Shown in pieces: positions 5,107 through 20,954 of a stretch of 64,000 nt of DNA (positions are counted from its first letter, which is position 1; every line of letters starts with the position of its first letter). The stretch comes from Candidatus Moraniibacteriota bacterium (lineage in GTDB: Bacteria; Patescibacteriota; Minisyncoccia; Moranbacterales; GWC2-37-73), in contig DAOOTD010000002.1 of the NCBI GenBank assembly GCA_035390125.1, positions 169,908 to 233,907 on the forward strand, written 5' to 3'. The position numbers were made by a program, and so were the translations under genes. Below the pieces are notes generated by a model that ran no database searches, was not told the origin of the DNA, and worked only from the letters and a program-made list of their open reading frames with translations.

Positions 5107-6000
5107 ATGTCTACACTTTATAATCAAGCGGATAAAAATATCCGTTTAACTTGGATATATATCACCGGTTTTCTCGTGTTTGTGATTGGAGTTGGGTACG
5201 TTTTCGCGGGAGCGATGGGCAACAGCTCTATTCTTTATGGTGCTGTAATATTTTCAATTTTAATGAGTTTCGGTTCATATTGGTGGAGTGATAAAATAGT
5301 GCTGGGAATGAGCAGGGCTAAAGAAATAAGCCATGATAATAATCGGGAAATATTTCATATCGTGGAAAATCTTTGCATTACAGCTGGGCTACCGATGCCG
5401 AAAATATATATCATAGAAGACAGTGCTCCAAATGCTTTTGCAACAGGGAGGGATCCGAAACATGGAGTAATTTGTCTGACAACCGGAATAATACAGAAAT
5501 TGGAAAAGGTCGAGCTAGAAGGAGTAATTGCGCATGAACTTTCCCATATTGGTAACCGAGACATTCTTCTTTCCACAGTCATTGTTGTTTTAGTTGGTTT
5601 TATAACTCTTTTAGCTGATTGGTTTCGTCACTGGGCTTTTTTTGGCGGTAAATCACGTGATAGTGAGGGAGGGAGTCAACTACGTGCAATTTTGATACTT
5701 ATAGCTGTTGTTCTTTCAATTTTAGCTCCAATTGCAGCCATGCTAATGCAATTGGCTATTTCACGAAAAAGAGAATTTTTAGCCGATGCTTCAGGAGCAC
5801 TTCTTACGCGGCATCCTGAAGGCTTGGCGCGCGCTTTGGAAAAAATTTCAGTTGATCAGGAACCGCTAGAGGCTGCCAATCGTGCCACAGCCCATCTTTA
5901 TATTTCTAATCCTTTTAAGGGGAAAAAAGTTTCTAAATTATTCTTAACCCATCCTCCTATTGAAGATAGAGTAAAGGCTCTACGGGGAATGTCTGTTTAG
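5107..6000 (+). CDS. htpX: zinc metalloprotease HtpX (M48)
   Basis: HELSHIGNRD HExxH motif, 4 TM segments, and the usual LemA-HtpX pairing. Confidence 0.9.
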   Translation: MSTLYNQADKNIRLTWIYITGFLVFVIGVGYVFAGAMGNSSILYGAVIFSILMSFGSYWWSDKIVLGMSRAKEISHDNNREIFHIVENLCITAGLPMPKIYIIEDSAPNAFATGRDPKHGVICLTTGIIQKLEKVELEGVIAHELSHIGNRDILLSTVIVVLVGFITLLADWFRHWAFFGGKSRDSEGGSQLRAILILIAVVLSILAPIAAMLMQLAISRKREFLADASGALLTRHPEGLARALEKISVDQEPLEAANRATAHLYISNPFKGKKVSKLFLTHPPIEDRVKALRGMSV

Positions 6001-6003
6001 GAT

Positions 6004-6465
6004 ATGCAATGGAAAAAGCCGAAAAATACGGATAAATATTTTTGGACGCAGCACGTCCAGGAAAAAATGCATTATTACGGGCTTTCTGAGCAAAAAGTTT
6101 TGGGTGTGATTCGAAAACCGCAAAGAATTGAAACCGGAATTGCAGAAAATACAGTAGCAGTTATGATTCCAGTTGGAAATATTAAAAGAAATAAAAAACC
6201 TTCAATATGGAATCGTTCGTTTAACGATGATGGCGAACAAGAAAAATGGAGTCAGGAAGTTTGGGTAATGTACCAAACGAAAAATCAAAAAATAAAAAAT
6301 AAAGTAACAACGCAGAATTCAAAATTAAAAGAATTACAAAATAAAATAAATTCAAATAAAAAAATCACAATAATTTCAGCTTGGCGGTATCCTGGAGTGA
6401 GTCCGGAAAAAAATCCGATTCCTGAAGAAATCATGAGGGAAATAGAGCAAATTGGCTTAAAATAG
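6004..6465 (+). CDS. hypothetical Lys-rich protein
   Basis: ORF tightly following htpX; no recognisable motif. Confidence 0.35.
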   Translation: MQWKKPKNTDKYFWTQHVQEKMHYYGLSEQKVLGVIRKPQRIETGIAENTVAVMIPVGNIKRNKKPSIWNRSFNDDGEQEKWSQEVWVMYQTKNQKIKNKVTTQNSKLKELQNKINSNKKITIISAWRYPGVSPEKNPIPEEIMREIEQIGLK

Positions 6466-6553: not shown

Positions 6554-7114
6554 ATGGAAGAAAACACACAAAAAACAGAGGCTCCAAAACAAGAGTCTCA
6601 AGAACAAGCTAAAAAATCTGCGCCTGCGTCTGAACCAAAAGTTGAACAAAAAAGCGTGAAAGGAGATATTTCACAATTCGAAGCTTTTTTAGAAGAATAT
6701 TTAGTAAAAAAGGCTCCCTTTGCGATTCCAGCTGGTGGCAAAGAATTTATTGTTAAGGTTGCTCCGTATCTAATTATCATTTTTGCTATTATTGCAATTC
6801 CAGGAATTTTATTAGCATTGGGTCTTTCTACTGTTTTAGCTCCTTTTGCAATGGTTGGTTATGCGATTGGCCATGGATTCGGATTTCTTGCTCTTATTTC
6901 CCTCGTAATTTCTATAGTGGTAGTTGTTATGGAACTTATTGCTGTACCGGGATTATTTAAGCGAACCAAGGGAGGATGGAAATTGGTTTTTTACGCCAGT
7001 ATCGTAAGCTTGATTGGAAGTATAATTTCTGTAGCAGGTATCATAAGCGGAATTATAGGAGCAATTATTGGTTGGTACATTTTATTTCAGGTTAAAGAAC
7101 TTTATAAAAACTAA
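6554..7114 (+). CDS. hypothetical integral membrane protein
   Basis: Polar N-terminus followed by 4 to 5 hydrophobic helices. Confidence 0.45.
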   Translation: MEENTQKTEAPKQESQEQAKKSAPASEPKVEQKSVKGDISQFEAFLEEYLVKKAPFAIPAGGKEFIVKVAPYLIIIFAIIAIPGILLALGLSTVLAPFAMVGYAIGHGFGFLALISLVISIVVVVMELIAVPGLFKRTKGGWKLVFYASIVSLIGSIISVAGIISGIIGAIIGWYILFQVKELYKN

Positions 7115-7132
7115 GTTTTTTCATTCTGACAG

Positions 7133-7160
7133 CAAGCAGCCTTTCCGGGTTGCTTGTTTT
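7133..7160 (+). terminator. rho-independent terminator
   Basis: CAAGCAGCC-loop-GGTTGCTTG hairpin followed by TTTT. Confidence 0.45.
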
Positions 7161-7197
7161 GTTATAATATTACTGTATAAACACAAAAATATCTTAT

Positions 7198-8601
7198 ATG
7201 AAAAAACACACAAAAATTGTAGCTACTTTAGGGCTTGTCTCTGATAAAAAGGAAGTAATAAGAGATATGATTGAGGCTGGTATGGACGTGGCACGTCTTA
7301 ATTTTTCACATGGAAGTTATGAGTGGCATAGAGACGTTATCAAGATCGTCCGTGAACTTTCAGAAGAAATGCAAAAACCAGTAGGAATAATGGCTGATTT
7401 GCAAGGACCGCGCATACGCACATTAGTGGAGGCTGAAGTTGAAATAAATACTGGCGATAAAATTGCAGTAAGTGATATTGAAAAAGTCAAAGATGTAAGA
7501 CATAGAATACAAGATAAACAATGCTTTTTATTGGACATACCAAACATTATTGATGATATTGAAGTAGGTAATGAGATTTTAATTGAAGACGGATTAATGA
7601 AAGTTGTTGTTCGCGAAAAAGATAATAATATTTTATTAGCAGAAGTTATTGATGGAGGAATTATTAAAAATCATAAAGGTATTAATATTCCGGATGCAAA
7701 ATTACATATTGATCCAATTACCGAAAAAGATGAAAAGGATCTGGATTTTTCTCTTGAAAATGAAGTTGATTTTGTAGCCATGTCATTTGTGAGTTCCGGA
7801 ATGGATATTGAAAATCTTCGAAGTAGAATTGAAAAAATTCTCGGACGTACTGAAAATCTTCCGCAAATAGTAGCAAAAATCGAGCGCAAGGAGGCTATTA
7901 AAAATCTAGAAGATATTGTTGCTCATGCTGATGTAGTAATGGTAGCTCGTGGGGATTTGGGAATTGAAATGGATGAAAGTAAGGTCGGAGTTTTTCAGAA
8001 AGAAATCGTGGGTAAAAGCCTGCAAAATATGAAGCCGGTAATTATGGCGACACAGATGATGAATTCTATGATTGAAAATCCGCGTCCAACACGGGCCGAA
8101 GTCAGTGATGTGACTAATGCAGTCATCGATCATGTTGATGCCGTCATGCTTAGTGGAGAATCAGCCAGTGGTAAATATCCGGTAGAGAGCGTAAAGATTA
8201 TGAAGGAAATTATTGAAAACACGGAAGCTTCTCCTTATGATAATGTCGATCACTTGCTTAAATTAAGAAATGAAGAAGAATTTAATTCTTTCATAAAAAA
8301 TACATATAAATTAGTAAAAGATAAGAAAATAAAGGGCATTGCGGTGGCCAGTTTTTCTGGATTTACGGCACGCCTCATTTCCCATTTCCGTTTAGAAAAG
8401 CCACTTCTAGTTGCAACTAATAACAAAAAGACATATAATCAGCTATCCCTCCTCTGGGGTGTTGAAGGTTATTATACTAGCCAGGATAAACCCAAGCAAA
8501 TGCTGGAAGCCATGATGAAGGCAAAAAATCTGGATAAAAAGGAGGAAATTATCAGAATTGCTGGGAACACGCCACAAGGGGAAAAAATGAAATTAATTTA
8601 A
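7198..8601 (+). CDS. pyk: pyruvate kinase
   Basis: KIVATLG, NFSHG and MVARGDLGIEM motifs. Confidence 0.9.
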   Translation: MKKHTKIVATLGLVSDKKEVIRDMIEAGMDVARLNFSHGSYEWHRDVIKIVRELSEEMQKPVGIMADLQGPRIRTLVEAEVEINTGDKIAVSDIEKVKDVRHRIQDKQCFLLDIPNIIDDIEVGNEILIEDGLMKVVVREKDNNILLAEVIDGGIIKNHKGINIPDAKLHIDPITEKDEKDLDFSLENEVDFVAMSFVSSGMDIENLRSRIEKILGRTENLPQIVAKIERKEAIKNLEDIVAHADVVMVARGDLGIEMDESKVGVFQKEIVGKSLQNMKPVIMATQMMNSMIENPRPTRAEVSDVTNAVIDHVDAVMLSGESASGKYPVESVKIMKEIIENTEASPYDNVDHLLKLRNEEEFNSFIKNTYKLVKDKKIKGIAVASFSGFTARLISHFRLEKPLLVATNNKKTYNQLSLLWGVEGYYTSQDKPKQMLEAMMKAKNLDKKEEIIRIAGNTPQGEKMKLI

Positions 8602-8619
8602 CTTTTAAACCAAAAATAA

Positions 8620-8706
8620 GGAGAGGTCGCATAGTGGTCGAGTGCACCACCTTGGAAAGGTGGCATACTGGAAACGGTATCGAGGGTTCGAATCCCTCTC
8701 TCTCCG
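8620..8706 (+). tRNA. tRNA-Ser (anticodon GGA), long variable arm, no encoded CCA
   Basis: Hand-folded. Acceptor GGAGAGG/TCTCTCC, anticodon stem CCACC/GGTGG with loop TTGGAAA, T-arm GAGGG-TTCGAAT-CCCTC. Confidence 0.85.
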
Positions 8707-8749
8707 CTAATTGTTTGCTTTTTTCTCTAAAGTTCTTTAGTCTGAAAAT

Positions 8750-10555
8750 ATGAATAAAAATGTAGAAGAAATAAAATCGAGACTTAATATCGTTGATGTA
8801 GTCGGCGAATATGTCCGTCTAACAAAAGCAGGCGCAAACTGGAAAGGCTTATGTCCTTTTCATCATGAAAAAACTCCTTCTTTCACGGTTAATGAAGAAA
8901 AACAGATCTTTCATTGCTTTGGCTGTACTAAGGGTGGGGATGTTTTAACTTTTATTCAAGAGATAGAAAGTATTGAATTTAGAGAAGCCTTGAAAATGCT
9001 GGCAGAAAAAGCCGGAGTAGAGCTGGAAGAATATAAATCACAAGATACAGATAATAAAAAAAGAATTTTAGAAATTCTAGAACTTGGGACTAAGTTTTAT
9101 GAAACACAGCTTTGGAAAGGAGCAGGAAAAGACAAAATACTAAAATATCTTTACGATCGCGGGCTGACCGAAGAAAGCATTAAAAAATTCCGTTTAGGTT
9201 ATGCTCCGGAGGGGTGGATAAATATCCTAAATTTTTTGATAGAAAGAGGTTATAAAATTGATGAAATAAATAAAACCGGTCTTTTGGTAGAAAAGTCTAA
9301 CGAAGCTAAAAGCCACAAACTGGAAGCTAATTATTATGATCGATTTAGGGATAGGATAATTTTTCCTATTCAGGATATTTTTGGAAATGTGATTGGTTTT
9401 TCGGCCAGGGTAGCTCCAGGAGGAGATGAATCACAGGCAAAATACGTGAATACTCCAGAAACAGCAGTTTATCATAAAAGCAAGGCTCTTTATGGTATCT
9501 CGCATGCGAAGAATGAAATAAAAAATAAAAATTATACGCTTTTAGTGGAAGGGAATATGGACGTTATTGCGGCTTCCCAAGCAGGAATTCAAAACGCAGT
9601 TGCAGTTTCTGGGATAGCCTTGACTGCCGATCAGATTATAATGCTTAAAAGATATTCCCAGAATCTGGCCATGCTTTTTGATATGGACAGTGCCGGGCAA
9701 CAGGCTGCAGAGAAAAGTGCAGACTTGTGTTTTGAGAAAGACATGAAGGTAAAAATAGTCGCCTTGTCTGATGGAAAAGATGCGGCTGATGTGGTTAAAA
9801 AAGACCCGCAGCTTTTATTAAAAGCGGTTAAAGAATCAGTCGGAGCTATGGAATATTTTTTCAATTTAATCTTGAAAAAATATGATAAAAATTCAGCCAG
9901 TGGCAAGAATGGTATTGCCAAAGAAATTCTGGCACATGTTTCACATATTGAAAATAAAATAGAAAAATCACATTGGGTAAAGAAAATCTCGCATGAGCTT
10001 GATGTGGAAGAAAATGTAATAAACAATGTATTAAAAGAAGTTGTTGCTATTCCCAGGGAATACGCTGGATATGAAAGCGAACAGACAGAAAAAAAATCAT
10101 CCTTTCAGAAACGCAGTGATTTAATAAGTGAATCATTAATAGGAGTTATTTTAAGCAGTAGCGAAATATGGAAAGGAATATTTGAAAAAGAAAGAGAAAA
10201 TGAAAGTATTAAAAATGATGAACTATTGTGGTTCGTGCTTAAGAAAGGTCCAGAGGCTGAGTTTTCTTTCGATAAAATGCTTACAATAATTGAAGATGAC
10301 CAGATTGTGGAAAAACTGCGCAGGATTTATTTTGAAACAAAGTACCGCTTCGCACAGGAAGAAATAGTCGAACAAACAGAGGAAGAGCTTAAAAAATTAG
10401 CAGATGGATATATGGTTGAATATAATAGAGAATTGCAAAAAGAAAAAATCCGTAGTATTATAAAGGAAATCGAGAAAGCTGAAAACAAGGGCGATAAAGA
10501 AACCCTTGCCAAATTAATGAGCGAGTTTACTAAACTTTCTCAAGAGATTCAATAG
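8750..10555 (+). CDS. dnaG: DNA primase
   Basis: Zinc finger CPFHHEKTPSF...HCFGC and a TOPRIM region (EGNMDV). Confidence 0.9.
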   Translation: MNKNVEEIKSRLNIVDVVGEYVRLTKAGANWKGLCPFHHEKTPSFTVNEEKQIFHCFGCTKGGDVLTFIQEIESIEFREALKMLAEKAGVELEEYKSQDTDNKKRILEILELGTKFYETQLWKGAGKDKILKYLYDRGLTEESIKKFRLGYAPEGWINILNFLIERGYKIDEINKTGLLVEKSNEAKSHKLEANYYDRFRDRIIFPIQDIFGNVIGFSARVAPGGDESQAKYVNTPETAVYHKSKALYGISHAKNEIKNKNYTLLVEGNMDVIAASQAGIQNAVAVSGIALTADQIIMLKRYSQNLAMLFDMDSAGQQAAEKSADLCFEKDMKVKIVALSDGKDAADVVKKDPQLLLKAVKESVGAMEYFFNLILKKYDKNSASGKNGIAKEILAHVSHIENKIEKSHWVKKISHELDVEENVINNVLKEVVAIPREYAGYESEQTEKKSSFQKRSDLISESLIGVILSSSEIWKGIFEKERENESIKNDELLWFVLKKGPEAEFSFDKMLTIIEDDQIVEKLRRIYFETKYRFAQEEIVEQTEEELKKLADGYMVEYNRELQKEKIRSIIKEIEKAENKGDKETLAKLMSEFTKLSQEIQ

Positions 10556-10652
10556 AAAACAAAAACTGGGTCAGCCCGGTTTTTGATGTTTGTTTGTTGA
10601 AACTTAATCTTCAGTGGAATAGGAATATATTCCATAATATATTTTTTAAATT

Positions 10653-11999
10653 ATGAAAAGAACACAAAAAAAGAAAAGCAAGAAGAAAGTGTTAAAGAAA
10701 CATATTATACGCAAGGCTAAAAAAATAAAATCAGGAAAACTTAAAAGATCCTTACGGAAAAAGGTATCTATAAAATTAAAGAAAAAACCTAAAAATGCTA
10801 AGAAAGTAAAATCAAAAACAAAATCAAAGAAAAAAGATATTCTGACTAAAAAGAAATCTAAAAATAAAAAATTAACAATAAAATCGAAAGAAATTCAGCC
10901 AGAAGGCATGGATGTAGTGGCTGAGTTGATTGCACGCGGAAAGCAGCGAGGATTTGTGACTGAAGATGAAATAATCCATCTTATCCCAGAAATCGAAGAA
11001 GAATTGGATGAATTGGAAAATTTATATGAAAAACTTGAAACTGCCGGCATAAAAGTTGTCGTTTCTGATGATATGTTGAAAATAGATACTGATAAAGAGG
11101 TCGAAGCTTATGAAAAGAGTAAAAAGGATAAAAATGCCGATATTATCCTGGGAGAAGGAGTTGAGGACAGTTCATCAGACTTGGTTCAAATGTATTTTCG
11201 TGAAATAGGACGGGTTCCACTTTTAAAATCAGAAGAAGAAATAAAATTGGCTAAAGCTAATGAAAAAGGAGATTTGGCGGCCAAACAAAAACTTACTGAG
11301 TCAAATTTACGTTTAGTTGTCAGTATTGCGAAAAAATATGTCGGACGTTCTCATAATTTGTCTTTGCTTGATCTTATTCAGGAAGGAAATATAGGTCTTT
11401 TCAGAGCAGTAGAAAAATTTGATTACAGAAAAGGATACAAATTTTCTACTTATGCCACCTGGTGGATACGCCAGGCAATTACACGCGCTTTAGCTGATCA
11501 GTCCAGAACCATACGCATACCGGTACATATGGTTGAAACTATAAATAAATATACCCAGATTACGCGCAGACTCGTCCAGGAATTAGGAAGGGAACCTTTA
11601 CCGGAGGAAATAGCTGCCGAAATGAATTTAGAAGTGGATAAAATCAGACATATCCAAAAAATTTCCCAGGAAACTGTTTCCTTGGAAACGTCAGTCGGTG
11701 ACAGTGATGATGACAGTGTGCTTGGAGATTTTATTGAAGACACTGAAACTGTAATGCCTCATCAGGTAGCTTCCAGAAAACTTTTAAAAAATCATGTGGT
11801 AGAAGTTTTAAGAGAACTTACTCCACGTGAACAAAAAATCTTGAAAATACGTTTCGGACTTGAAGATGGGGTAACCCACACCCTAGAAGAAGTTGGAAAA
11901 GAATTCGGAGTAACTCGAGAACGCATTCGTCAAATTGAAGCTAAAGCTCTAGATAAAATCAGGCAGCATAGGTCAATAGGAAAGCTTAAAGACTACTAA
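10653..11999 (+). CDS. rpoD: RNA polymerase sigma factor RpoD with a roughly 85-aa Lys-rich N-terminal extension
   Basis: Region 2 ([22 protein letters not shown]) and region 4 ([20 protein letters not shown]) motifs; dnaG-rpoD synteny. Confidence 0.9.
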
Positions 12000-12087
12000 T
12001 ATTGAACCTTGCCAGATTAGAATATTTTTGATACAATGTTTTCGTTGTCTGTTTAGGCAACATTTTTCAAAATCAAATAAAACATAT

Positions 12088-12162
12088 TCCGGCGTAGCGC
12101 AACGGTAGCGCAGGGGACTGTTAATCCCTTGGTTGTAGGTTCGAATCCTACCGCCGGAGCCA
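12088..12162 (+). tRNA. tRNA-Asn (anticodon GTT) with encoded CCA
   Basis: Hand-folded. Acceptor TCCGGCG/CGCCGGA, anticodon loop CTGTTAA, T-arm TAGGTTCGAATCCTA, 3' GCCA. Confidence 0.9.
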
Positions 12163-13632
12163 TTCTTTAGTTTTGGCATATTCCATTATGCCATTAAAGG
12201 GAGCTTTTACCTCAAATGAAAGCTTTCCTGCATTTAAAGTAAGGTTCTGAAGTAAGAAACCCAATAGTTGGGTTTTTTCTTGTGGTTCAGAATTTTGGAA
12301 CAATTCTAATGCCCTTTGCGACAAGTCTAATACTTTATTTGCTGTAAGACTGAAGTCTCTATCAGCGGACGAATGTTCCTGAAGTTGTGTATTTAAGTTT
12401 TCTCTTTCTTGTGTGTATTCAATAGCCATTTTGTCATATTCGTCCGCAGTAATACGTCCATCAAGTCTGTCTCTATACATAACCTTTAACCTTGCATCTA
12501 TATTGCCTATTTTTCTTTGAATAGTTGCTTTATTTTTCTCATAATACACTTTTTCAGCATCATGAATAGTTCTTAGCTCATCTTTGAGCCTATCAAGGGC
12601 TTCTGGCTCCAATTTTAAACTCTGAAATAGGTCTTTAGTTTGATCCACTAATTCATCTTCTCTCAACCACTTTATTCCTTTATCAGGACAAGTCCCGTAA
12701 TAATTAGTGCAATGATAGTAAACATGCCCTTTCTGAAGTTCTGGCGTAATTGCTAATCCGCAATGTGAACATTTTATCAATCCTCTGAAAATATATGGAT
12801 TGTTTGTTCGTTTGAAATTTTGCCTATTATAGCCGTTTATAACTTCTTGGACTTTTTCAAATAAATATCTTGAAACGATAGGTTGATATTTATGCGGATA
12901 TAGCTTACCCTTAACTCTCATTACGCCGTAATAGAACGGGTTTCTTAAAATTGCATGAACTTGGCTTGTTGTCATCTTCATTCCGCTCCTACTTCTCAAG
13001 CCTCTGTCGTTCATTTCCTGTGCAAGCTTTTTCATTGAAAATTTACCCGTGGCATACAACTGAAACATTTTTAGGACTAGAAATTCTTTGTCCTTGTCTA
13101 TGATAATATGCTTTTTTTCATTTTCCAGTGTTATATTTTTATATCCCAGATAGGCTTGTCCAATCCATTCGCCATTCCTTAATTTCTGCTCGTAAGCTCT
13201 TTTTACATTGTCGCTAATTGCATCAGAATAATATTTCGCCAGACCTAAATTTATTCCAAAATGAAATTTTTCTGCTGCCGATATATTTGAAGAGATAACA
13301 AGGTTGTCTGAAACAAAATGTAATTCTATTTTATCTTGCATTGCTAAATCATATAAAAGTGGAACGCGTTTATCAAAAACATTTCGCGTAAATCTATCTA
13401 CTTTGTCAAAACAGACTACAATTTTATCTTTGCTTTTCTTTACTAAATCAATTGCCTTATCAAATTCGTCTCTTTTTTGTTTATAGGCACTTTCATCAAA
13501 GCTAAAGATTTCTAAAACTGCAAAACCTTTTGTTTTGCAGTATTCTTTAAGCCTATGAATTTGAGCTGGTAGAGAGTTTCCGGCGTCTTTTTGTTCTTCT
13601 GTTGAAACTCTAGCTAATATTATCGCTTTCAT
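12148..13632 (-). CDS. large serine recombinase (resolvase/invertase-type N-terminal domain + recombinase domain + Zn ribbon); start at MKAIIL (track ORF extends to 13677)
   Basis: ILARVSTEEQ...GNSLPAQ catalytic Ser region, and a Cys cluster CSHCG...CTNYYGTC. Confidence 0.8.
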   Translation of the reverse strand: MKAIILARVSTEEQKDAGNSLPAQIHRLKEYCKTKGFAVLEIFSFDESAYKQKRDEFDKAIDLVKKSKDKIVVCFDKVDRFTRNVFDKRVPLLYDLAMQDKIELHFVSDNLVISSNISAAEKFHFGINLGLAKYYSDAISDNVKRAYEQKLRNGEWIGQAYLGYKNITLENEKKHIIIDKDKEFLVLKMFQLYATGKFSMKKLAQEMNDRGLRSRSGMKMTTSQVHAILRNPFYYGVMRVKGKLYPHKYQPIVSRYLFEKVQEVINGYNRQNFKRTNNPYIFRGLIKCSHCGLAITPELQKGHVYYHCTNYYGTCPDKGIKWLREDELVDQTKDLFQSLKLEPEALDRLKDELRTIHDAEKVYYEKNKATIQRKIGNIDARLKVMYRDRLDGRITADEYDKMAIEYTQERENLNTQLQEHSSADRDFSLTANKVLDLSQRALELFQNSEPQEKTQLLGFLLQNLTLNAGKLSFEVKAPFNGIMEYAKTKEWLRR

Positions 13633-15320
13633 TTTACGAATGCGTTTTGGACTGTTTGCGAAATTTGCTGATACCAATCTTTTTCATTTTCAGTTTTCAA
13701 CGCAAGATTAGATAGTGAATTAAACAAATTTTTTAAATCATCTGCTTTCGGTTTAATTGCGGAGCTATGGGCGTTTTTTAATAAACATTTGAAGTCCTCT
13801 AAACTTAAAGGTATTATTTGTGATTTTCCGCCATAATATTCTATGTTGATGCGATACAAACCGTAGTAGTGAGCAATGGTAGCATTATTCAAATTAGGAG
13901 CTACAAATATTCCAAATACAGGTTTTGAATTGCTTTTTTTATATTGACCATAGTGTCTTGCTACAGGCTCTCCTTCCATTTCATATTGTTTTTGTCCTGA
14001 TGATAGAGTGACTTCAACAATTGCATCAAAATCTTTATATTTACAAACTATATCGGGTGTGTTGCCTGGAGCTGTATATAATGGCATACCATCGTCATCA
14101 ATTTTAAAGTTTCCTTGAATATCTCCGTCGTTCAACATTGTAAAAGCTCTCCAAATATTCCATTCAAAGAAAAGAGATGGATCTATATTTTCTCTATTTA
14201 CAATACCTGAAAAAACTTCAAGTATATCATTATATTCTTCATAATTTCGTAATTTACTTTTTTCATTTTCAATATATTTTTCAAGACTCTCTTTGATTAG
14301 GCTTTCATAGATATTTTTCAAGTCTTCCGTGTCCTTCTCTTTGAGTGCCGAAACACTAACTCTTGTATCTTTCTGTGTAATTTTAGAAATTATCAAGTCT
14401 TTATTATCTACAAGAAGCAATGGCTTGCTCGCATCAAACAAATTCGCTTCATAATCTTCTTCATCTTTATATGCAAATATATCCCTATCAATATTCTTTA
14501 GAATAAATTCAATATCATTTTTTCTTTCTTTGAGAATGTATACTTTTGATGTTTTTGGATTTAACGAAAACAGTCCGGTAGCACGAAGATACCTAATAGA
14601 GGCATCGGCATAATCAAGATGATTACTTCGTTTAGTTTTAACAAAATTATCTAAAGTTTGTTCCTTACTTTCCCTTATTGATAACTTTCCTTGCTCAATG
14701 TCTTCCTTGAATAATTCAGTCAGCTCTTTCTCAAATTGCAAGGCGATAAATTTTTTATAATTTATCTTTTTTGTTCGCAATAACTTTTTTTCTTCTCTGA
14801 AATTGATAATTTTATTTTTTACATTATTGTATTTAGCAAAATCTGTAAGTTGAATAACAAATAGCCCTATCTCATGCTTGCTTAAACCGTCTAATTCATA
14901 AATAAGTCTCATTAACTCAAGGTAGGGCTTTATTCTAAATGTGTTATTTTTATCTTTATGATAAGGCGAATGAAGCTGGAACTTCAATAGCTGTCTTAAA
15001 AATATCTCTTCCGGTCTGTTTCCATAAACATATTTTTTTCCAGCTTCAGTAAGCTTGATAACTGGCTTTAAGTCAATCAATCCAAGAGATTTAGGAGCTC
15101 TGTTTACTCTATCTCTAGCCTTAAAAGCGACATCTCCAGTTGCTGAACCCTCAAAAAAATCTTGTTTAGCTAGTTGTAAATAAAACTTTTTTTGAGTCTC
15201 TGAATTCCATTTCTGACCTTCAAAATTTTCTGATAAAAATTTTATCTCATCAACCAGTTTGTGTGGTGACCTAGGCGAGGTAACGAAAAATATTGTTTTT
15301 TTATCTGTTATGTGAGCCAT
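13629..15320 (-). CDS. putative type II restriction endonuclease (possibly AlwI-family-like; identity uncertain)
   Basis: 563-aa protein immediately downstream of a DNA methyltransferase in the same operon. C-terminal TPDIV..DAIVEVT..QK resembles a PD-(D/E)xK core. Confidence 0.4.
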   Translation of the reverse strand: MAHITDKKTIFFVTSPRSPHKLVDEIKFLSENFEGQKWNSETQKKFYLQLAKQDFFEGSATGDVAFKARDRVNRAPKSLGLIDLKPVIKLTEAGKKYVYGNRPEEIFLRQLLKFQLHSPYHKDKNNTFRIKPYLELMRLIYELDGLSKHEIGLFVIQLTDFAKYNNVKNKIINFREEKKLLRTKKINYKKFIALQFEKELTELFKEDIEQGKLSIRESKEQTLDNFVKTKRSNHLDYADASIRYLRATGLFSLNPKTSKVYILKERKNDIEFILKNIDRDIFAYKDEEDYEANLFDASKPLLLVDNKDLIISKITQKDTRVSVSALKEKDTEDLKNIYESLIKESLEKYIENEKSKLRNYEEYNDILEVFSGIVNRENIDPSLFFEWNIWRAFTMLNDGDIQGNFKIDDDGMPLYTAPGNTPDIVCKYKDFDAIVEVTLSSGQKQYEMEGEPVARHYGQYKKSNSKPVFGIFVAPNLNNATIAHYYGLYRINIEYYGGKSQIIPLSLEDFKCLLKNAHSSAIKPKADDLKNLFNSLSNLALKTENEKDWYQQISQTVQNAFVK

Positions 15321-15347
15321 AATTATTTTTTTCTTATCGTTTATTAT

Positions 15348-16139
15348 TTACCAAAATATTTTCTCGTTATCTGGAATAGAGGAATTTTTTTGAAGAATAT
15401 CTTTTTTAAATTTAATATATTCTTTAATTCTCTTTTCCGATATTTCAATAGACTTGTTTGAGATATCACAGCCTATAAAATTACAATTATGTTTGATTGA
15501 AGAAATTGCTGCAGAGCCACTGCCTAAAAATGGGTCACAGACAACAAAGTTTGGTGAAGTGCTGGCACTTAACATTATGTCAAATAATTCAACCGGTTTC
15601 TGCGTAGGATACTTTGCTTGATGAACCCTCTTAATTCTCCAAACATCTGGAAATGAGCGGCTCTTTATCTTACGGTTGTTTTTATTTGTTGCAAAAATAA
15701 TAAATTCGTGTCGCCTTCTGAAATAATGTCCCATTCCTAAATTGACCTTATCCCAGGAAATAATATTTTTCACATCAAATAGTTCTCTTACTATTGGACC
15801 AAGCGAAAGAAGGGAGTAGGAATCAAACATTATATATAAATGACCTGAACTTTTCAGTGCTTTTTTGCACAATAGCAAAAAATTTCTATAATTTTCTTCT
15901 GTATCTTTGAATTCCTCAAACCATTTTCCATTTACTGTTCCTTTTTCGGCATATTTTCCAACAATTCTTCCGTTCCCCAAGCTTAAATGATTATTCATTC
16001 CTGAATAAGCTGGATCTGTTACAATAATGTCTATACTTTTTTCTGGCTGACTTTCAAGAAATTTTAATACATCATCGTGAACGATTTTTATTGTATTTTT
16101 TCCTTTATTATATTTGACCTCAAAAGATAATTTTCTCAT
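15348..16139 (-). CDS. beta-class N6-adenine/N4-cytosine DNA methyltransferase (N6_N4_Mtase family); start at MRKLSF (track ORF extends to 16160)
   Basis: Motif IV TDPAY (DPPY-like) at the N-terminus, YPTQKP, and motif I DPFLGSGSAA at the C-terminus; this motif order defines the beta class. Confidence 0.8.
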   Translation of the reverse strand: MRKLSFEVKYNKGKNTIKIVHDDVLKFLESQPEKSIDIIVTDPAYSGMNNHLSLGNGRIVGKYAEKGTVNGKWFEEFKDTEENYRNFLLLCKKALKSSGHLYIMFDSYSLLSLGPIVRELFDVKNIISWDKVNLGMGHYFRRRHEFIIFATNKNNRKIKSRSFPDVWRIKRVHQAKYPTQKPVELFDIMLSASTSPNFVVCDPFLGSGSAAISSIKHNCNFIGCDISNKSIEISEKRIKEYIKFKKDILQKNSSIPDNEKIFW

Positions 16140-16143
16140 AGAT

Positions 16144-16320
16144 TTATTTTGTTGATGCATTTTCTACAAAACTTTGAAACTCGTTCTTTTTAATACGAAA
16201 CTCTTTACCGAATTTATAAGCTTTAATTTTTCCAGCTTTAATGTAGCGATAAATAGTCATTATATTTACCCTTAAAATATCAGCTAATTCTTGAGCTGTG
16301 TAAAATTCTTTTTCTTGCAT
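16144..16320 (-). CDS. excisionase-family (HTH_17/MerR-like) DNA-binding protein, 58 aa; not in the ORF track because it is under 60 aa
   Basis: Hand translation gives MQEKEFYTAQELADILRVNIMTIYRYIKAGKIKAYKFGKEFRIKKNEFQSFVENASTK, which matches the HTH_17 consensus (sELAeiLgVsrrTIYRwikaGklpayKiGr.wRI). Its stop lies 4 nt before the methyltransferase ATG. Confidence 0.6.
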   Translation of the reverse strand: MQEKEFYTAQELADILRVNIMTIYRYIKAGKIKAYKFGKEFRIKKNEFQSFVENASTK

Positions 16321-16357
16321 ATGTTTATTTTTTAATTATAAGATACTTTACTTTTCT

Positions 16358-16558
16358 TTACAAGAAACAGTCCTTACGATCATTGCAACCACCACACGCA
16401 TCGCAATAATCATACTTTCCTATTACAGTAATCTCGTCCTCCAAGCCTCTTTTCTTTAGCTCCTTTCTTATTTCTTCAGCAGTTCGTCCTTGAAAAATTT
16501 CATCAAGCAACTCATCAGTGAGTTCAACTTTTTTCTTTTTTAAATTTTTTTTACTCAT
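16358..16558 (-). CDS. small CxxC-motif protein (YCDACGGCNDRKDC)
   Basis: 66-aa ORF between the Rep-like gene and the HTH gene, with a C-terminal 4-Cys cluster. Confidence 0.35.
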   Translation of the reverse strand: MSKKNLKKKKVELTDELLDEIFQGRTAEEIRKELKKRGLEDEITVIGKYDYCDACGGCNDRKDCFL

Positions 16559-16576
16559 TTATTTAGAATTAAATAA

Positions 16577-17722
16577 TTAACTCGTAATTTGCTCTTTCTT
16601 AAAGACATCAAATTTTTTTAATCCTTCTTCAATATCCTTCAAATAAAGCTCTGGCGACAATGCGTTTGTATTTAATGCTATTGCATTTAATTCTTTCAAG
16701 TGCTTGTTTACATTATTCCAAGAGCCTTTTCCGAATTTGTCCTCTATAATCTGACGAAACAATTCTGCACCCTCGCTCTTGCAAAAATCTTTGATAGCAT
16801 ACAGAGCTACTGCTTTTGTAGGTCTTCCATTTTGATTTGCGATATAATCAGAAATTTCCATAAGCTCATCTTTCTTGCTTTTGTTTTGCTGAAAGAGATG
16901 CAGGTTTCTTTCTTGGACAAGCGTATTCCAATAATCAAGCAAAACTTTTTGGCAAACATCTTTTTTAAAAATATCTCTGAAGTTTGGATTTTTGCCAAAT
17001 CCTATTTTTTCCAAAACCGTGTCCATTTTTCTTTTTTGCGAAAGCCTAACCTCCATTTTAAGAATTTCAATGTCAGTCTTTCTTCGCCACTCGTTTATCT
17101 GACAAAACAAACTTTTTTGATTTCCTTTCATATCGTGGTCAATTGACCTTTTTTCGTCTTTTCCCATATCGGCGATTTTATCGTAGAAAACTAGGGAGTG
17201 AGATTTTGAATAATACTGAAGTGAATGACCGCCGTTGCGAAAATCCGTCTTTGTCAGATCCAACCTCTTTGTTAGCTGTATTTTGGAAAGCTCTTTGATT
17301 GCCATTGTAGCTGTTATGTAGCCGTTTAACTCAATGTTTTTTGAGGCGTGAAATCCGGACACAGTAGCTTCCGCTAAATTATCTCGCATAATATAGACAC
17401 CTTTTTTGATTAGTTTTTCCTGTAATTTGAGGATAACTTCTTCAAAATCACTTTCTTTAATTTCGTCTAGATTATTCTGAAATAGTAACTTTGGAACTGA
17501 AAATTCAACTCTTAAACCGATATTTATTCCCATTCTTGAAGGTCGTCTATAGAGTGTCATTCTTGGATAATATTCCCATTTTGATTCTTCCTTTGAAGGA
17601 TTGTTAACGGCTTTGCCATATCCGGCATCAGATAAAAAGTCTTTCGCGTTAGGAAAAAACATTTCTGGCGTCCAAATATCAAACTTATCAAGTGGAAAAT
17701 TCAAGATTACTGTGTCTAGCAT
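16577..17722 (-). CDS. putative rolling-circle replication initiation protein (gpII/Phage_CRI or Rep_trans-like)
   Basis: N-terminus MLDTVILNFPLDKFDIW resembles the MIDxLVLRLPF start of filamentous-phage gpII-type Rep proteins. Context is a mobile element. Confidence 0.35.
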   Translation of the reverse strand: MLDTVILNFPLDKFDIWTPEMFFPNAKDFLSDAGYGKAVNNPSKEESKWEYYPRMTLYRRPSRMGINIGLRVEFSVPKLLFQNNLDEIKESDFEEVILKLQEKLIKKGVYIMRDNLAEATVSGFHASKNIELNGYITATMAIKELSKIQLTKRLDLTKTDFRNGGHSLQYYSKSHSLVFYDKIADMGKDEKRSIDHDMKGNQKSLFCQINEWRRKTDIEILKMEVRLSQKRKMDTVLEKIGFGKNPNFRDIFKKDVCQKVLLDYWNTLVQERNLHLFQQNKSKKDELMEISDYIANQNGRPTKAVALYAIKDFCKSEGAELFRQIIEDKFGKGSWNNVNKHLKELNAIALNTNALSPELYLKDIEEGLKKFDVFKKEQITS

Positions 17723-17907
17723 AATTTTGCGTTATTTTCATTATTCGTCTTATTTGAGCTATTTTCCTTTTGTTGTTCATTTATTCGTTTGTCAATTCTA
17801 AAAAGCAAGTCAAAAAATCCCACAAAATTGTGCTTTGCTTCAAATACTTCCTTGTTAGAAAGCGTCTTTTTGCTTAATTTCTCATAGAATTCCTTGTCAG
17901 ATAACAT
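17716..17907 (-). CDS. small hypothetical protein, first gene of the island operon
   Basis: 63-aa ORF overlapping the Rep start by 7 nt. Confidence 0.25.
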   Translation of the reverse strand: MLSDKEFYEKLSKKTLSNKEVFEAKHNFVGFFDLLFRIDKRINEQQKENSSNKTNNENNAKLC

Positions 17908-17910
17908 AAA

Positions 17911-17932
17911 ACCAGCAACTTTAAATTGCTGG
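17911..17932. promoter_or_regulatory. 7-bp perfect inverted repeat CCAGCAA-N7-TTGCTGG just upstream of the island operon (operator or candidate nick/origin hairpin)
   Basis: Seen directly in sequence at 17912-17918 and 17926-17932. Confidence 0.3.
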
Positions 17933-18222
17933 CTTCTGAAGACAAAAAAAGAGACAACAGAGGCTAATCAACTTAAAGTTGAATGCTTTGTTATCTCAAA
18001 GGCTGTATGCAGGTTAAGATTGCTGTAGTGCCCTAGGGCGACTTATAGTATTAACGTTCCAAGTCTTATATTGAGCTAAATCAAAACTTTATTAACTTTT
18101 TAAGGCTTATATATACAATATCATACAAAAATAGACTTTGTCAAGGTGTAGTTATTTTGTTATAAATTTAATTTTTAAGCCAAAAAATGGCTTAAATAAG
18201 CTGTCGCGCAGCTGAACATTCA

Positions 18223-18438
18223 TTACTTTTTCTTACTTTCAGTAATTTTCTTTAGAAATTTTTTTCTTTCGCTTTTGTTTAAAAAAACGCTTTCAAAGAA
18301 GTATTGCATTTGAACTAAATTATAGTCTAAATTTACACTTTTCAGCTCTTTGTTGATGCTTTTAACTACGAATTTTTCCAGCTTGGCGTTCTCTCTTCTC
18401 TGAATTCTTGGCAGTAATAGTTTCTTCGTAAACCTCAT
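18223..18438 (-). CDS. hypothetical small basic protein
   Basis: 71-aa ORF, Lys/Arg-rich. Confidence 0.25.
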   Translation of the reverse strand: MRFTKKLLLPRIQRRENAKLEKFVVKSINKELKSVNLDYNLVQMQYFFESVFLNKSERKKFLKKITESKKK

Positions 18439-18503
18439 ATAATTTGTGATAAATTTTTAATTTTTATATACTTTATAAAAGAAACTCATAATATTTTAAT
18501 AAA

Positions 18504-19427
18504 ATGGACTTATCTGAAATTGAAAAAAGAAATGCTTCTGTAAATAAATACCTAGAAGGTATTAGCGATGAGGAGCTTAGAAAAAAAGGTGATGAAGAAT
18601 ATGCCAAGGCGGAAAAGGATTTTAAGGAATTAAAAGAAGCTCTTGCGGAAGGAAAATGTAGTTTCTGCGGAAATTCTATTTCTCATTTTTCTGAAAAGAA
18701 ACCGTGTTTTCATTGGCTTTTAAAACCGAATGGCTTTAAGAAAAGACACTTTCCCTTGCTATATAAAAAATATAGTTTTCGTAGAATGGAGGCATATTTA
18801 CGCTGGGTGGCAAATACTGATATACCCCTTAAAAATATAAACGATTTAGTTGAAGAAAAAACATCTTCAAAAAAAATTGAGCTAACAGTGGTCTATAAAG
18901 ATTTAGAATGGTCATTTTCCTGTTCTAGGTCTGATTATCAAGGACATCAAGACAAACGAGAAGGAAAAATGCCTCACTATCATTTTCAGATGAAGAAAGC
19001 TGGCAATGTAATAATAAACTATGCCGGCTTCCATATTCCTTTTCACGATGAAGATTTTTTTTCATTTGCATTGAGTGAAGGAAAAATTCCCAGACTAGGC
19101 TATAAACATATTCACGGTGCGGGAATGCAAGAACTTCTTGATAATTTTTCTCCAGAAGAAATTCTTGAGCAAATGGTAAAGGCTGACGATGAAGAAAATG
19201 CTCAATTTCATACCTCTACGCTTGTCGAGGCTGATCCCGGAACTACAATATCAGGTTCAGTCATCGCTGATTTAGTAGAGGAGCATAAACGAACAGGAAT
19301 TCCAATGGCACGACTTATTCAAAAATTACCAAACATTAAAGCGACTAGCTATATTACTCCCGGTCCCGGCGTGCCAGAATTAGCAAAAAGAACTCCAAGA
19401 CGTAAAAAAATGCAAGAAGACAAATAG
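18504..19427 (+). CDS. hypothetical Cys/His-rich protein (possible Zn-binding; CSFCGN...CFHW, HYHFQ, HIPFHDED)
   Basis: 307-aa ORF in island cargo; no recognisable family. Confidence 0.4.
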   Translation: MDLSEIEKRNASVNKYLEGISDEELRKKGDEEYAKAEKDFKELKEALAEGKCSFCGNSISHFSEKKPCFHWLLKPNGFKKRHFPLLYKKYSFRRMEAYLRWVANTDIPLKNINDLVEEKTSSKKIELTVVYKDLEWSFSCSRSDYQGHQDKREGKMPHYHFQMKKAGNVIINYAGFHIPFHDEDFFSFALSEGKIPRLGYKHIHGAGMQELLDNFSPEEILEQMVKADDEENAQFHTSTLVEADPGTTISGSVIADLVEEHKRTGIPMARLIQKLPNIKATSYITPGPGVPELAKRTPRRKKMQEDK

Positions 19428-19631
19428 CATTCCTCTGATTTGTCCTGTGATGTCCTGTTATAGCTCTGCAAATGCTGGCAACAATTCCATTTCTTGCATA
19501 AGTCTTCCTAAATTCAAGTTTCTGAACATATTAGCTAGCGGGAGCAACGATTTTCAGGACTTATTTAAAGCCCTGTTTTTTATATTTGTTCAATTCATAA
19601 TTCTAAATTTTTATAATTAGCGAATTATATA

Positions 19632-19660
19632 TTGACAAAAATATAGCCTGGGTATATGAT
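19632..19660 (+). promoter_or_regulatory. near-consensus sigma70 promoter (TTGACA-17-TATGAT)
   Basis: TTGACA at 19632-19637 and TATGAT at 19655-19660. AGGAGG RBS at 19692-19697 precedes the ATG at 19703. Confidence 0.5.
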
Positions 19661-20003: not shown

Positions 20004-20045
20004 ACCCGCCGGCAGAAAATCTGCTTTGGTGGGTTTTCTGTTTTT
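20004..20045 (+). terminator. hairpin + T-run terminator (CCCGCCGGCAG...CTGCTTTGGTGGG TTTTCTGTTTTT)
   Basis: Imperfect GC-rich stem followed by a T-tract. The 3' arm and T-tract are the start of the 52-bp repeat. Confidence 0.45.
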
Positions 20046-20073
20046 ATATCAAACTTAAATTAAATTCTTCCAA
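20022..20073 (+). repeat. copy 1 of a 52-bp direct repeat (TGCTTTGGTGGGTTTTCTGTTTTTATATCAAACTTAAATTAAATTCTTCCAA)
   Basis: 51 of 52 nt identical to 20761-20812. Confidence 0.8.
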
Positions 20074-20178
20074 AATTTTCCAAAACTTTACTCACTTAAA
20101 AGTGCTCAATTTTTAGTATGGGCATCATATTTTAATGGCTTATTTAAGCCTTTTTTTATTTAATTTATTAATTGCTTG

Positions 20179-20742: not shown

Positions 20743-20785
20743 CCCACCAGCAAGGAAACTTGCTTTGGTGGGTTTTCTGTTTTTA
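20743..20785 (+). terminator. rho-independent terminator (CCCACCAGCAAG-GAAA-CTTGCTTTGGTGGG followed by TTTTCTGTTTTT)
   Basis: 12-bp stem and T-run; overlaps repeat copy 2. Confidence 0.6.
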
Positions 20786-20812
20786 TATCCAACTTAAATT
20801 AAATTCTTCCAA
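20761..20812 (+). repeat. copy 2 of the 52-bp direct repeat
   Basis: 51 of 52 nt identical to 20022-20073. Confidence 0.8.
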
Positions 20813-20954
20813 TAATTCACCAAATTATCTATAATTAAAAGTTATAATTTTTTTACTAAATTGAACCAAATAAAACACACTTTTTATGGGGTTATTTTTT
20901 ATACCAGAGTAGGATGATAGAATTTATGTTATAATAAACCTAGTAATAATTTTT

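Follow-up and report, generated by a model that had tools for sequence, protein, structure and literature searches.

A tRNA-Asn-integrated element of Candidatus Moraniibacteriota with a probable divergent gpII/Rep_trans-type initiator and a conserved leader hairpin

The sequence analysed here, referred to as the window, is a 64,000-nucleotide stretch of contig DAOOTD010000002.1 from a Candidatus Moraniibacteriota bacterium. It contains, at about 12161–19545, an integrative mobile element of about 7.4 kb at the 3' end of a tRNA-Asn gene. On the minus strand this element encodes a small protein (orf63), a protein of 381 residues designated Rep, a small DNA-binding protein of the HTH_17 family, a DNA methyltransferase, a type II restriction endonuclease and a large serine recombinase (Table 1). 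An earlier note on this DNA had drawn attention to the open reading frame (ORF) of Rep and to a perfect 7-bp inverted repeat at 17912–17932; both are real and exactly as described, and the inverted repeat is also conserved in relatives. The explanation that we consider best, with a probability of roughly 0.6, is that Rep is the replication or nicking initiator of this tRNA-integrated element, and that the inverted repeat belongs to an attenuator-like hairpin in the leader of its operon.

The Rep protein is identical to a recorded hypothetical protein from a metagenome-assembled genome of Candidatus Moranbacteria (P0001). At least 230 full-length homologues with 37–84% identity could be retrieved by a word-indexed search, while an exhaustive profile search extended the family to at least 1,292 clusters at 50% identity (622 below 1e-30), and 182 relatives were found in the species-representative genomes scanned. 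Most of the contigs listed are labelled as Patescibacteria groups, namely Parcubacteria/Paceibacteria, Saccharibacteria, Kazan, Wolfebacteria, CPR2, Gracilibacteria, Doudnabacteria and others; a minority, mostly short, was binned to other taxa. In an AlphaFold2 model (pLDDT 90) residues 1–230 form a beta-sheet domain that includes all invariant residues, and residues 230–381 are helical. The residues that are invariant in a 51-member alignment are M1, D3, T4, E73, S75, E87, Y180-D181-K182 and E224-x-R226.

Rep had been described as reminiscent of the gpII/Phage_CRI and Rep_trans initiators, and this resemblance is upheld by profile matches of its relatives, by structural comparison and by colinear motifs. 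When the 51 family members were scanned separately, nine matched PF05144 (Phage_CRI / G2P N-terminal) and four matched PF02486 (Rep_trans) weakly; the profile evidence comes from the relatives, the window protein itself giving no match. Two relatives exceeded the PF05144 gathering cut-off of 21.7 bits (P0009 with 24.5 bits and P0052 with 22.3 bits), and residues 1–230 of P0009 align to positions 1–217 of the 232 in the profile. A Foldseek search of BFVD with the Rep model gave five matches with probability 1.0 (E = 3e-8 to 9e-6), one of which is named 'Replication-associated protein G2P [Inoviridae sp.]'; the other four are unnamed, with accessions of the series cited for an Inoviridae Rep_trans protein in PMC13107129. 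Rep_trans enzymes have a fold like that of the TATA-binding protein (TBP), a catalytic tyrosine in motif III and three acidic metal ligands (PMC13107129). The only matches of the Rep model in PDB, weak ones to TBP/CYTH structures, would fit such a fold, and the predicted fold of the catalytic domain is common to Rep and known members of the superfamily.

The Rep family and gpII are colinear over 160–300 columns, in alignments that are statistically weak (P = 0.05–0.07). The motif pairs in this stretch are MLD/MID, IEFSVPK/VEIKASPAK, Y180-x-K with the invariant Y197-x-K of gpII, and EVRL/FEARL (also FEAR and FEARI). The invariant Y180-D181-K182 of the 51 sequences lies in a predicted strand (175–181), and its counterpart Tyr197 is the catalytic residue in gpII. 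Also in predicted beta-strands are D3, E73 and E224, E87 being invariant as well; in the weak hhalign alignment D3 and E224 pair with the near-invariant D3 and the invariant E245 of gpII. In RepDE, the acidic metal-binding residues around the tyrosine are D46, D142 and E214.

Several results weigh against this assignment. The window Rep has no match in the Pfam (E <= 1), PHROG, NCBIfam or PADLOC profiles, and no PDB sequence match up to E = 10, whether searched as a single protein or as a family profile. Foldseek found no significant match in PDB for the model and did not recover the RepDE structures. The hhalign comparisons of the family with a single gpII (P = 0.053) and with a 39-sequence alignment of Ff-type gpII (P = 0.067), although colinear, are not significant, and hmmsearch of M13 gpII and pT181 RepC with the Rep family profile gave nothing significant. 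Taking both sides together, we regard Rep as very probably part of a new, highly diverged lineage within the gpII/Rep_trans superfamily, representing a family that is apparently specific to Patescibacteria and remotely but consistently related to gpII (PF05144) and Rep_trans. The earlier note had looked to a catalytic tyrosine and HUH motifs as marks of such an initiator; the former has a counterpart in the invariant Y180-x-K, and no HUH motif is present. Rep was rejected as an HUH enzyme: there is no conserved HxH, the near-invariant H125 and H175 are isolated, and no Pfam HUH family is matched. The motif is indeed not expected in Rep, since the gpII/Rep_trans superfamily is TBP-like and unrelated to the HUH enzymes (PMC13107129).

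The boundaries of the element could be located by comparison with individual relatives, out of a set of about 160 related loci (80 from genomes and 80 from metagenomes). Locus L081, in which Rep is 82% identical, shares with the window the region 18438–16126, the recombinase gene and an isolated 110-bp block at 19547–19438, and its homology ends at both window copies of the sequence GGAGC. In L082 the counterpart of the 110-bp block directly abuts the 3' end of another recombinase gene. In locus L025 an element of 6,441 bp is perfectly duplicated in tandem (6772–19658), which exposes junctions of all three kinds, i.e. the left and right junctions with the host (attL and attR) and the joined element ends (attP); further attP-type junctions were found in L082, L164, L104, L115 and L008. 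The presence of GGAGC at both window junctions therefore delimits the element given above. Reconstructed from the element ends, the predicted attP of the window reads ...ACTAAAGAATGGCTCC / CGCTAGCTAATATGTTC... and the predicted empty host site (attB) reads ...CCTACCGCCGGAGC / AACGATTTTCAGGAC..., where the slash marks the junction; in attB the tRNA 3' end runs directly into AACGATTTTCAGGACTTATTTAAAGCCCTG-T6.

The tRNA remains intact, since crossover takes place right where its acceptor stem ends. The element side of attL continues with CATTC. In the occupied site the tRNA-Asn gene has the sequence ...GCCGGAGCCA with an encoded CCA, whereas the reconstructed empty site would read ...GCCGGAGCAAC and would not encode CCA, so that the element donates the CCA end. 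The far boundary does not repeat the tRNA 3' end, since the crossover core is just 5 bp, and the tRNA is the single Rfam match over 11.5–21 kb.

Table 1. Features of the element and of its insertion site, in window coordinates
Feature	Position	Strand	Evidence or remark
tRNA-Asn (GTT), integration target, 3' end forms attL	12088–12162	+	ARAGORN; Rfam tRNA 72.7 bits
Large serine recombinase, integrated truncated form, 494 aa	12148–13632	minus	PF00239 Resolvase, PF07508 Recombinase, PF13408 Zn_ribbon_recom
attL crossover core GGAGC, acceptor-stem 3' end of tRNA	12156–12160		junctions compared with L081, L082, L025
AlwI-family type II restriction endonuclease, cargo	13629–15320	minus	PF09491, E = 1.9e-61
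N6/N4 DNA methyltransferase, cargo	15348–16160	minus	PF01555, E = 3.1e-26
HTH_17 small DNA-binding protein, excisionase/MerR-like, backbone	16144–16320	minus	PF12728, E = 4.8e-14; PHROG excisionase families
orf66, small protein, common to closest relatives only	16358–16558	minus	no family match
Rep, predicted gpII/Rep_trans-superfamily initiator or nickase	16577–17722	minus	381 aa, begins MLDTVILNFPLDKF
orf63, 63 aa, first gene of Rep operon, overlaps Rep start	17716–17907	minus	core motif NLVGFFxLLLKVDKRxNP
Hairpin of the inverted repeat, 10–13 pair stem, apex TTTAAAG, then TTTT and orf63 ATG	17908–17936	minus	
Second, larger leader hairpin GAGATAACAAAG...CTCTGTTGTCTC, inner palindrome CAACTTTAAGTTG, then T7	17944–17997	minus	kept in L081, L083
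Putative sigma-70-like promoter TTGACA-N16/18-GATATT/TATTGT	18115–18144	minus	10/12 consensus matches; kept in L081, L083
orf71, small element gene	18223–18438	minus	own hairpin terminator at 18174–18196 (terminator scan)
orf307, left-end cargo, cysteine- and histidine-rich	18504–19427	+	no family match
Split-off 3' end of recombinase gene, LPLANMFRNLNLGRLMQEMELLPAFAEL and stop	19459–19545	minus	in frame with recombinase ORF only in attP form
attR crossover core GGAGC	19541–19545		host resumes at 19546 with AACGATTTTCAGGACTTATTTAAAGCCCTGTTTTTT, terminator-like hairpin

Different elements abut head to tail in L082 (1–210), L164 (3474–5060), L104, L115 and L008. These arrays, like the duplication in L025, stem either from elements accumulating in tandem at the tRNA or from assembly across the junction of an excised circle; they suggest that the attachment site has been used repeatedly.

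The junctions also concern the recombinase gene itself. In the window its integrated ORF ends with ...KTKEWLRR and a stop codon at 12148 inside the tRNA, the last 3–4 codons being tRNA sequence. When the two element ends are joined in silico, the frame extends to ...KTKEWLPLANMFRNLNLGRLMQEMELLPAFAEL and a stop, and the 87-nt tail gained in this way (19545–19459) differs from that of L081 by six synonymous and three conservative changes. A tail motif, LPLxxxLRTLNWxxIKxELEF, is found in all seven recombinase genes that are followed by the left end of an element and not by a tRNA (L025, L164, L104, L115, L008, L082 and the window reconstruction). The Rep strand of 97 loci yielded 104 matches to a profile built from the tail, and the opposite strand yielded none; 93 of these matches are orphan fragments in short open frames upstream of Rep, and such a fragment was present in 75 of the 91 loci that have at least 3.5 kb of upstream flank. 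Many short metagenome contigs (L058, L093, L104, L111, L116, L127, L130, L135, L140, L147, L156 and L166) start 115–155 nt upstream of the tail fragment, near attR. This suggests branching of the assembly graph at the element boundary, due to several contexts or circular forms.

These sequence comparisons show that the recombinase gene spans attP, so that integration removes a conserved C-terminal tail of 28–40 residues and excision would restore it. In the integration-dependent immunity of mycobacteriophages, likewise, the attachment site lies inside a coding sequence and integration changes the gene product. The same holds for the archaeal integrases of the SSV type (PMC8371274), although these are tyrosine enzymes, whereas here a serine recombinase loses only its extreme C-terminus and the truncated gene stays open. 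A further analogue of the restored recombinase is the replication operon of SNJ2, which is restored only after excision (PMC13107129). A serine recombinase gene split by integration appears to be new, as no earlier report was found in a literature search; should the split be functional, it would give a serine integrase a novel means of detecting whether it is integrated.

Most of the related loci have the same co-oriented module, orf63 – Rep – HTH_17 – variable cargo – large serine recombinase. The backbone is kept in 71–73 of the 80 genome loci, with HTH_17 downstream of Rep in 73 of the 80, and the 3' end of the recombinase gene overlaps a convergent tRNA gene in 60 of the 96 loci that have a recombinase. 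The targets in these 60 are Asn-GTT (43), His (8) and Ser-TGA (5), in addition to Gln, Glu and Lys. Element sizes calculated from the tail matches range from 5.3 to 14.7 kb with a median of 9.2 kb, the smallest consisting mostly of backbone. The earlier note had considered the combination of Rep, a serine recombinase and a restriction-modification (R-M) module to be an unusual hybrid, but it turns out to be the standard layout of a large family found throughout Patescibacteria.

The cargo between Rep/HTH_17 and the recombinase is overwhelmingly R-M (types II, IIG and III), and 161 of its 162 ORFs in 96 loci are co-oriented with Rep. A Pfam census covered 258 accessory ORFs (108 + 150), with the top 25 families per scan listed. 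Among the 108 ORFs scanned from this region, N6_N4_Mtase (22), ResIII (16), DNA_methylase (9) and TypeIII_RM_meth (7) were the most frequent, followed by D12, Eco57I and N6_Mtase (6 each), AlwI (3) and the HaeII, BpuJI, HpaII and ThaI endonucleases (1 each). Left-arm cargo is mixed and small, and includes SocA/Panacea, DUF3800, DUF4238 and AbiEii-like AAA proteins. As R-M dominates the cargo, the AlwI endonuclease and methylase of the window are a typical payload, and the family seems to behave as a dedicated R-M shuttle of the ultra-small Patescibacteria.

The inverted repeat reads CCAGCAA / TTTAAAG / TTGCTGG on the minus strand (17932 to 17912) and can be lengthened to a stem of 10 pairs, AAGCCAGCAA...TTGCTGGTTT, one of them G.T; this stem ends one base before the orf63 ATG. 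In folding it surpasses shuffled sequences, whether taken as RNA or as single-stranded DNA (z = -3.9; none of 200 shuffles was as good). Perfect repeats with a stem of at least 7 bp and a loop of 3–10 nt are not rare in the AT-rich window (89, versus 57–85 in shuffles), so that the significance of the hairpin rests on its conservation. In L083 it is CCAGCGA...TCGCTGG, in which an A-T pair is replaced by G-C through a compensatory change. A perfect hairpin of at least 8 bp is present within 700 nt upstream of Rep in 72 of 124 loci, as compared with 19–24 in control windows. Moreover, the arrangement of hairpin, T3–T7 and ATG of an orf63 homologue occurs in at least 62 distinct forms among 128 loci (7–14 pairs, loops of 3–12 nt). 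Homologues of orf63 gave BLAST matches in 41 of the 80 genome loci, and every one of more than 60 aligned homologues starts directly after the hairpin.

In the 62 distinct hairpins the pairs are 564 Watson-Crick, 60 G.T and 8 A.C, and the excess of G.T over A.C (60:8) implies that the hairpin is selected as a single-stranded nucleic acid of the sense strand and not as a symmetric duplex site. RNAalifold identified compensatory changes in four of six basal stem pairs; stems differ between subfamilies while pairing is kept. The stem base, (A)ATAACC...GGTTAT, is conserved in sequence across subfamilies, and the upstream k-mers TTTTTATG (59 of 128 loci versus 4 in controls) and ATAACCT (45 of 128 versus 3) are enriched. 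In the clade of the window a leader of about 190 nt, with the large hairpin followed by that of the inverted repeat, separates the orf63 ATG from a putative sigma-70-like promoter, which would drive both the leader and the orf63-Rep operon. Two to three short direct repeats, spaced about 11 nt apart, lie 10–50 nt upstream of the hairpin in related loci such as L080, L092, L093, L111 and L162. They are subfamily-specific (TCTTAAG x3, TCTGAAG x3, GTCTTAA x3 and TYAGCTGA x3) and iteron- or operator-like; their counterpart in the window is the pair CAACTTTAAGTTG / GCAATTTAAAGTTGC.

The earlier note had offered two functions for the inverted repeat, a nick site and an operator; the hairpin is real and conserved, an operator is unlikely, and the strand-specific G.U-type pairing, the U-run, the abutment to orf63 and the variable loops favour a terminator or attenuator. 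A terminator scan likewise picked up the window hairpin as terminator-like, with a stem-loop on the transcribed strand followed by a U-tract. In plasmid pT181, likewise, RepC is controlled by a terminator-type hairpin that immediately precedes the rep start codon. On balance we give an even chance to the hairpin being an intrinsic terminator or attenuator in the leader, placed between upstream transcription and the Rep operon. Counting against an attenuator, neither an antiterminator nor an antisense promoter has been identified for it, and a search for an antisense promoter that could produce a pT181-style countertranscript yielded no convincing candidate. The hairpin might instead be a double-strand origin at which Rep nicks the loop as TTT'AAAG, with the upstream repeats as its binding sites, comparable to IR-II/IR-III of pT181, the nick palindrome and gpII repeats of f1, and the oriT of ICEBs1. 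This would agree with its position on the sense strand of Rep, about 190 nt 5' of the gene, similar to that of the f1 nick site relative to gene II (in L086, used for this comparison, the nick palindrome is at 5774–5790 and gene II at 6006), and with the two to three iteron-like repeats about 11 nt apart that lie 10–50 nt upstream in many loci. The stem base AACC...GGTT also equals that of pT181 IR-II (AACCGGCTA...TAGCCGGTT), G.T pairs of the sense strand would be tolerated in single-stranded plus-strand DNA too, and the window loop has T'AA, as in the CT'AA of Rep_trans/MOBT (PMC9371924) and the CTTT'AATA of f1. However, the loops differ widely between subfamilies (TTTAAAG, TGGAATAT, ACATAAC, TCAG, AAAA and others), and known Rep_trans/MOBT nick loops share CT'AA (PMC9371924), which also tells against Rep nicking at this hairpin as part of our preferred explanation. 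Furthermore, a T-run of 3–7 always leads into the ATG, as needed by a terminator and not by a nick hairpin, in at least 70 loci the hairpin closely follows the end of a co-oriented ORF, a position to be expected of a terminator, and with a G.T to A.C ratio of 60:8 the complementary strand could not form a matching cruciform arm. We consider an origin doubtful, while noting that the attenuator and nick-hairpin roles are not mutually exclusive. If the repeat were instead a duplex operator bound by a dimeric repressor, either HTH_17 or orf63, this would account for a palindrome beside the operon start, for the conserved stem base and for a small helix-turn-helix (HTH) protein in the operon. Yet the arm spacing varies with loops of 3–12 nt and stems of 7–14 bp, compensatory changes preserve pairing and not sequence, and a duplex operator would not yield the asymmetry between G.T and A.C; on this strand asymmetry a symmetric operator was rejected as highly improbable.

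For the element as a whole, the explanation of Rep as its initiator can be phrased as a cycle. In the integrated state the leader terminators would hold orf63, Rep, HTH_17 and the read-through into cargo and integrase gene at a low level, leaving the operon nearly silent. Once induced, the element would be excised as a circle by the truncated integrase, possibly helped by the HTH_17 protein as directionality factor, and the circle would regain the full-length recombinase gene. Rep would nick one strand of this circle near the leader, at an origin among the repeats and hairpins that immediately precede orf63 (candidate substrate 17900–18150), where the hairpin described above may double as the nick hairpin. 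Linked to the DNA through Tyr180, Rep would prime rolling-circle copying, which would prevent loss of the excised circle and/or supply single-stranded DNA for transfer, and the full-length integrase would reinsert the element at a tRNA 3' end. Replication of the excised form would parallel that by NicK of ICEBs1 and Orf20 of Tn916 (PMC5704250) and that of pSAM2. This replication step rests on analogy, since no free circle, plasmid, phage or empty site was seen, and this counts against the proposed cycle. In particular, no plasmid record with Rep was found in PLSDB and no phage record among the 50,697 of INPHARED, IMG/VR contains one truncated contig among 2.9 million, and no terminal overlaps were detected in the loci checked that span a whole contig, most of them among the 80 metagenome loci. 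An empty attB was not found either, the island being present in 12 of 12 contigs that encode the RpoD of the window. The earlier suggestion of an integrated rolling-circle replicon is thus supported as far as an integrated mobile element with attL and attR is concerned, and not by any circular or free replicon. All long contigs with Rep are chromosomal, but the contexts are clearly mobile, so that the refutation named in the earlier note, homologues confined to chromosomal and non-mobile surroundings, does not apply.

A related possibility is that Rep is mainly a conjugative relaxase of the MOBT kind, with replication as a by-product. MOBT relaxases of Tn916, ICEBs1 and ICESt3, which are relatives of Rep_trans, do double as replication initiators. 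In addition, integrative mobilizable elements (IMEs) of streptococci pair putative relaxases of the Rep_trans or PHA00330 (phage CRI-like) type with tyrosine or serine recombinases (PMC5704250), so that a relaxase role in an IME-like element is plausible by analogy (PMC5704250, PMC12102498); the Rep family escapes Pfam and MOB profiles alike. What makes a primary role of this kind unlikely is that no coupling protein (TcpA/VirD4) or other transfer gene is among the families listed for the 258 accessory ORFs, that Rep lacks the N-terminal HTH domain typical of MOBT, and that Patescibacteria are naturally competent (PMC12857230), so that transfer may need no relaxase. Still more speculative, and rather improbable in our view, is a scenario in which the Rep family is the 'very different relaxase' missing from Patescibacteria, the elements ride the conserved chromosomal type IV secretion system and so spread R-M, and loss of the tail switches the integrase between integration and excision forms. 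Lastly, the best structural matches of Rep are Inoviridae replication proteins, and inoviruses combine a small size and frequent integration with gpII-type initiators, which could point to an integrated filamentous (inovirus-like) prophage or satellite with Rep as its gpII. Its gene content led us to reject this as the least probable of all: neither the window element nor the families listed in the census include a Zot/pI-type ATPase, coat-like or other virion gene, the cargo is R-M, toxin-antitoxin or defence-like, and the smallest elements, estimated at only about 5.3 kb, are mostly backbone. The near-absence from phage and IMG/VR records reported above speaks against it as well.

Compared with known systems, Rep resembles gpII/G2P of f1/M13 (PF05144) in length (381 versus 410 aa), in its N-terminal start (MLDTVIL versus MIDMLVL), in motif order and in having a sense-strand hairpin about 200 nt upstream of the gene. 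It differs in sequence, with about 15–18% identity and no C-terminal PF05155 domain detected, and in residing in a non-viral integrative element in which no virion genes were found, unlike gpII of filamentous phages. Rep_trans (pT181 RepC/RepD, PF02486) and MOBT proteins (NicK of ICEBs1, Orf20 of Tn916 and RelSt3 of ICESt3) belong to the superfamily in which we place Rep (PMC13107129), and in integrative and conjugative elements (ICEs) the MOBT proteins replicate the excised element and start transfer. The Rep motif is Y-x-K, that of Rep_trans YxxK, and unlike Rep_trans/MOBT the Rep family has no N-terminal HTH domain, no family-wide CT'AA loop and hosts other than Firmicutes. In overall design the closest parallels are Firmicutes IMEs and actinomycete ICEs (AICEs, e.g. 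pSAM2), which are also small, occupy the 3' ends of genes for tRNAs or housekeeping functions, and combine a site-specific recombinase with a rolling-circle initiator for maintenance and/or transfer; some of them carry type II R-M (PMC5704250, PMC2440964). The present elements deviate by their patescibacterial hosts, the new Rep family, a large serine recombinase acting at the extreme tRNA 3' end, cargo that is almost exclusively R-M, a recombinase gene split by integration and the fact that no coupling protein was found.

Integrative elements encoding a rolling-circle initiator or relaxase are thus a known kind, as in Firmicutes IMEs, ICEBs1/Tn916 and AICEs. What appears to be new is a Rep family that escapes current profiles, its restriction to Patescibacteria, the near-exclusive R-M cargo and a serine integrase that acts at a tRNA 3' end and whose gene is split on integration; no description of this element family was found in a full-text literature search. 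To our knowledge, the mobile elements of Patescibacteria (candidate phyla radiation) are almost unexplored. R-M is the main known phage defence of this group, which largely lacks CRISPR. For genetics in these hard-to-manipulate organisms the family offers a compact serine integrase with a defined tRNA attB, and a candidate replication origin with its initiator as a tool; the Rep family is also a candidate for the missing relaxase role in Patescibacteria.

Some of the smaller genes deserve mention. The HTH_17 protein may be a directionality factor or a binder of the origin or operator. A 65%-identical homologue of orf71 occupies the same position in L081. The place of orf307 is a second cargo slot, in which L081 holds an unrelated 552-aa gene and other family members have SocA/Panacea, DUF3800, DUF4238 or AbiEii-like genes. 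An extra backbone gene, missing from the window, is found in at least 70 loci. It encodes a co-oriented protein of 380–500 aa without Pfam match, and ends just before the hairpin, about 180–500 nt upstream of the Rep start (e.g. L025 8616–9767). In L022 (11118–11675) and L066 (11106–11630) a small resolvase-like serine recombinase of about 175–185 aa directly follows Rep, beside the large one. Just outside the window element, an intergenic 101-nt direct repeat with 80% identity occurs at 20014–20114 and 20753–20853. Several gene ends have nearly the same terminator-like hairpin (AAGCCnnnnnnGGCTT), for instance at 18182–18201 and 20138–20157.

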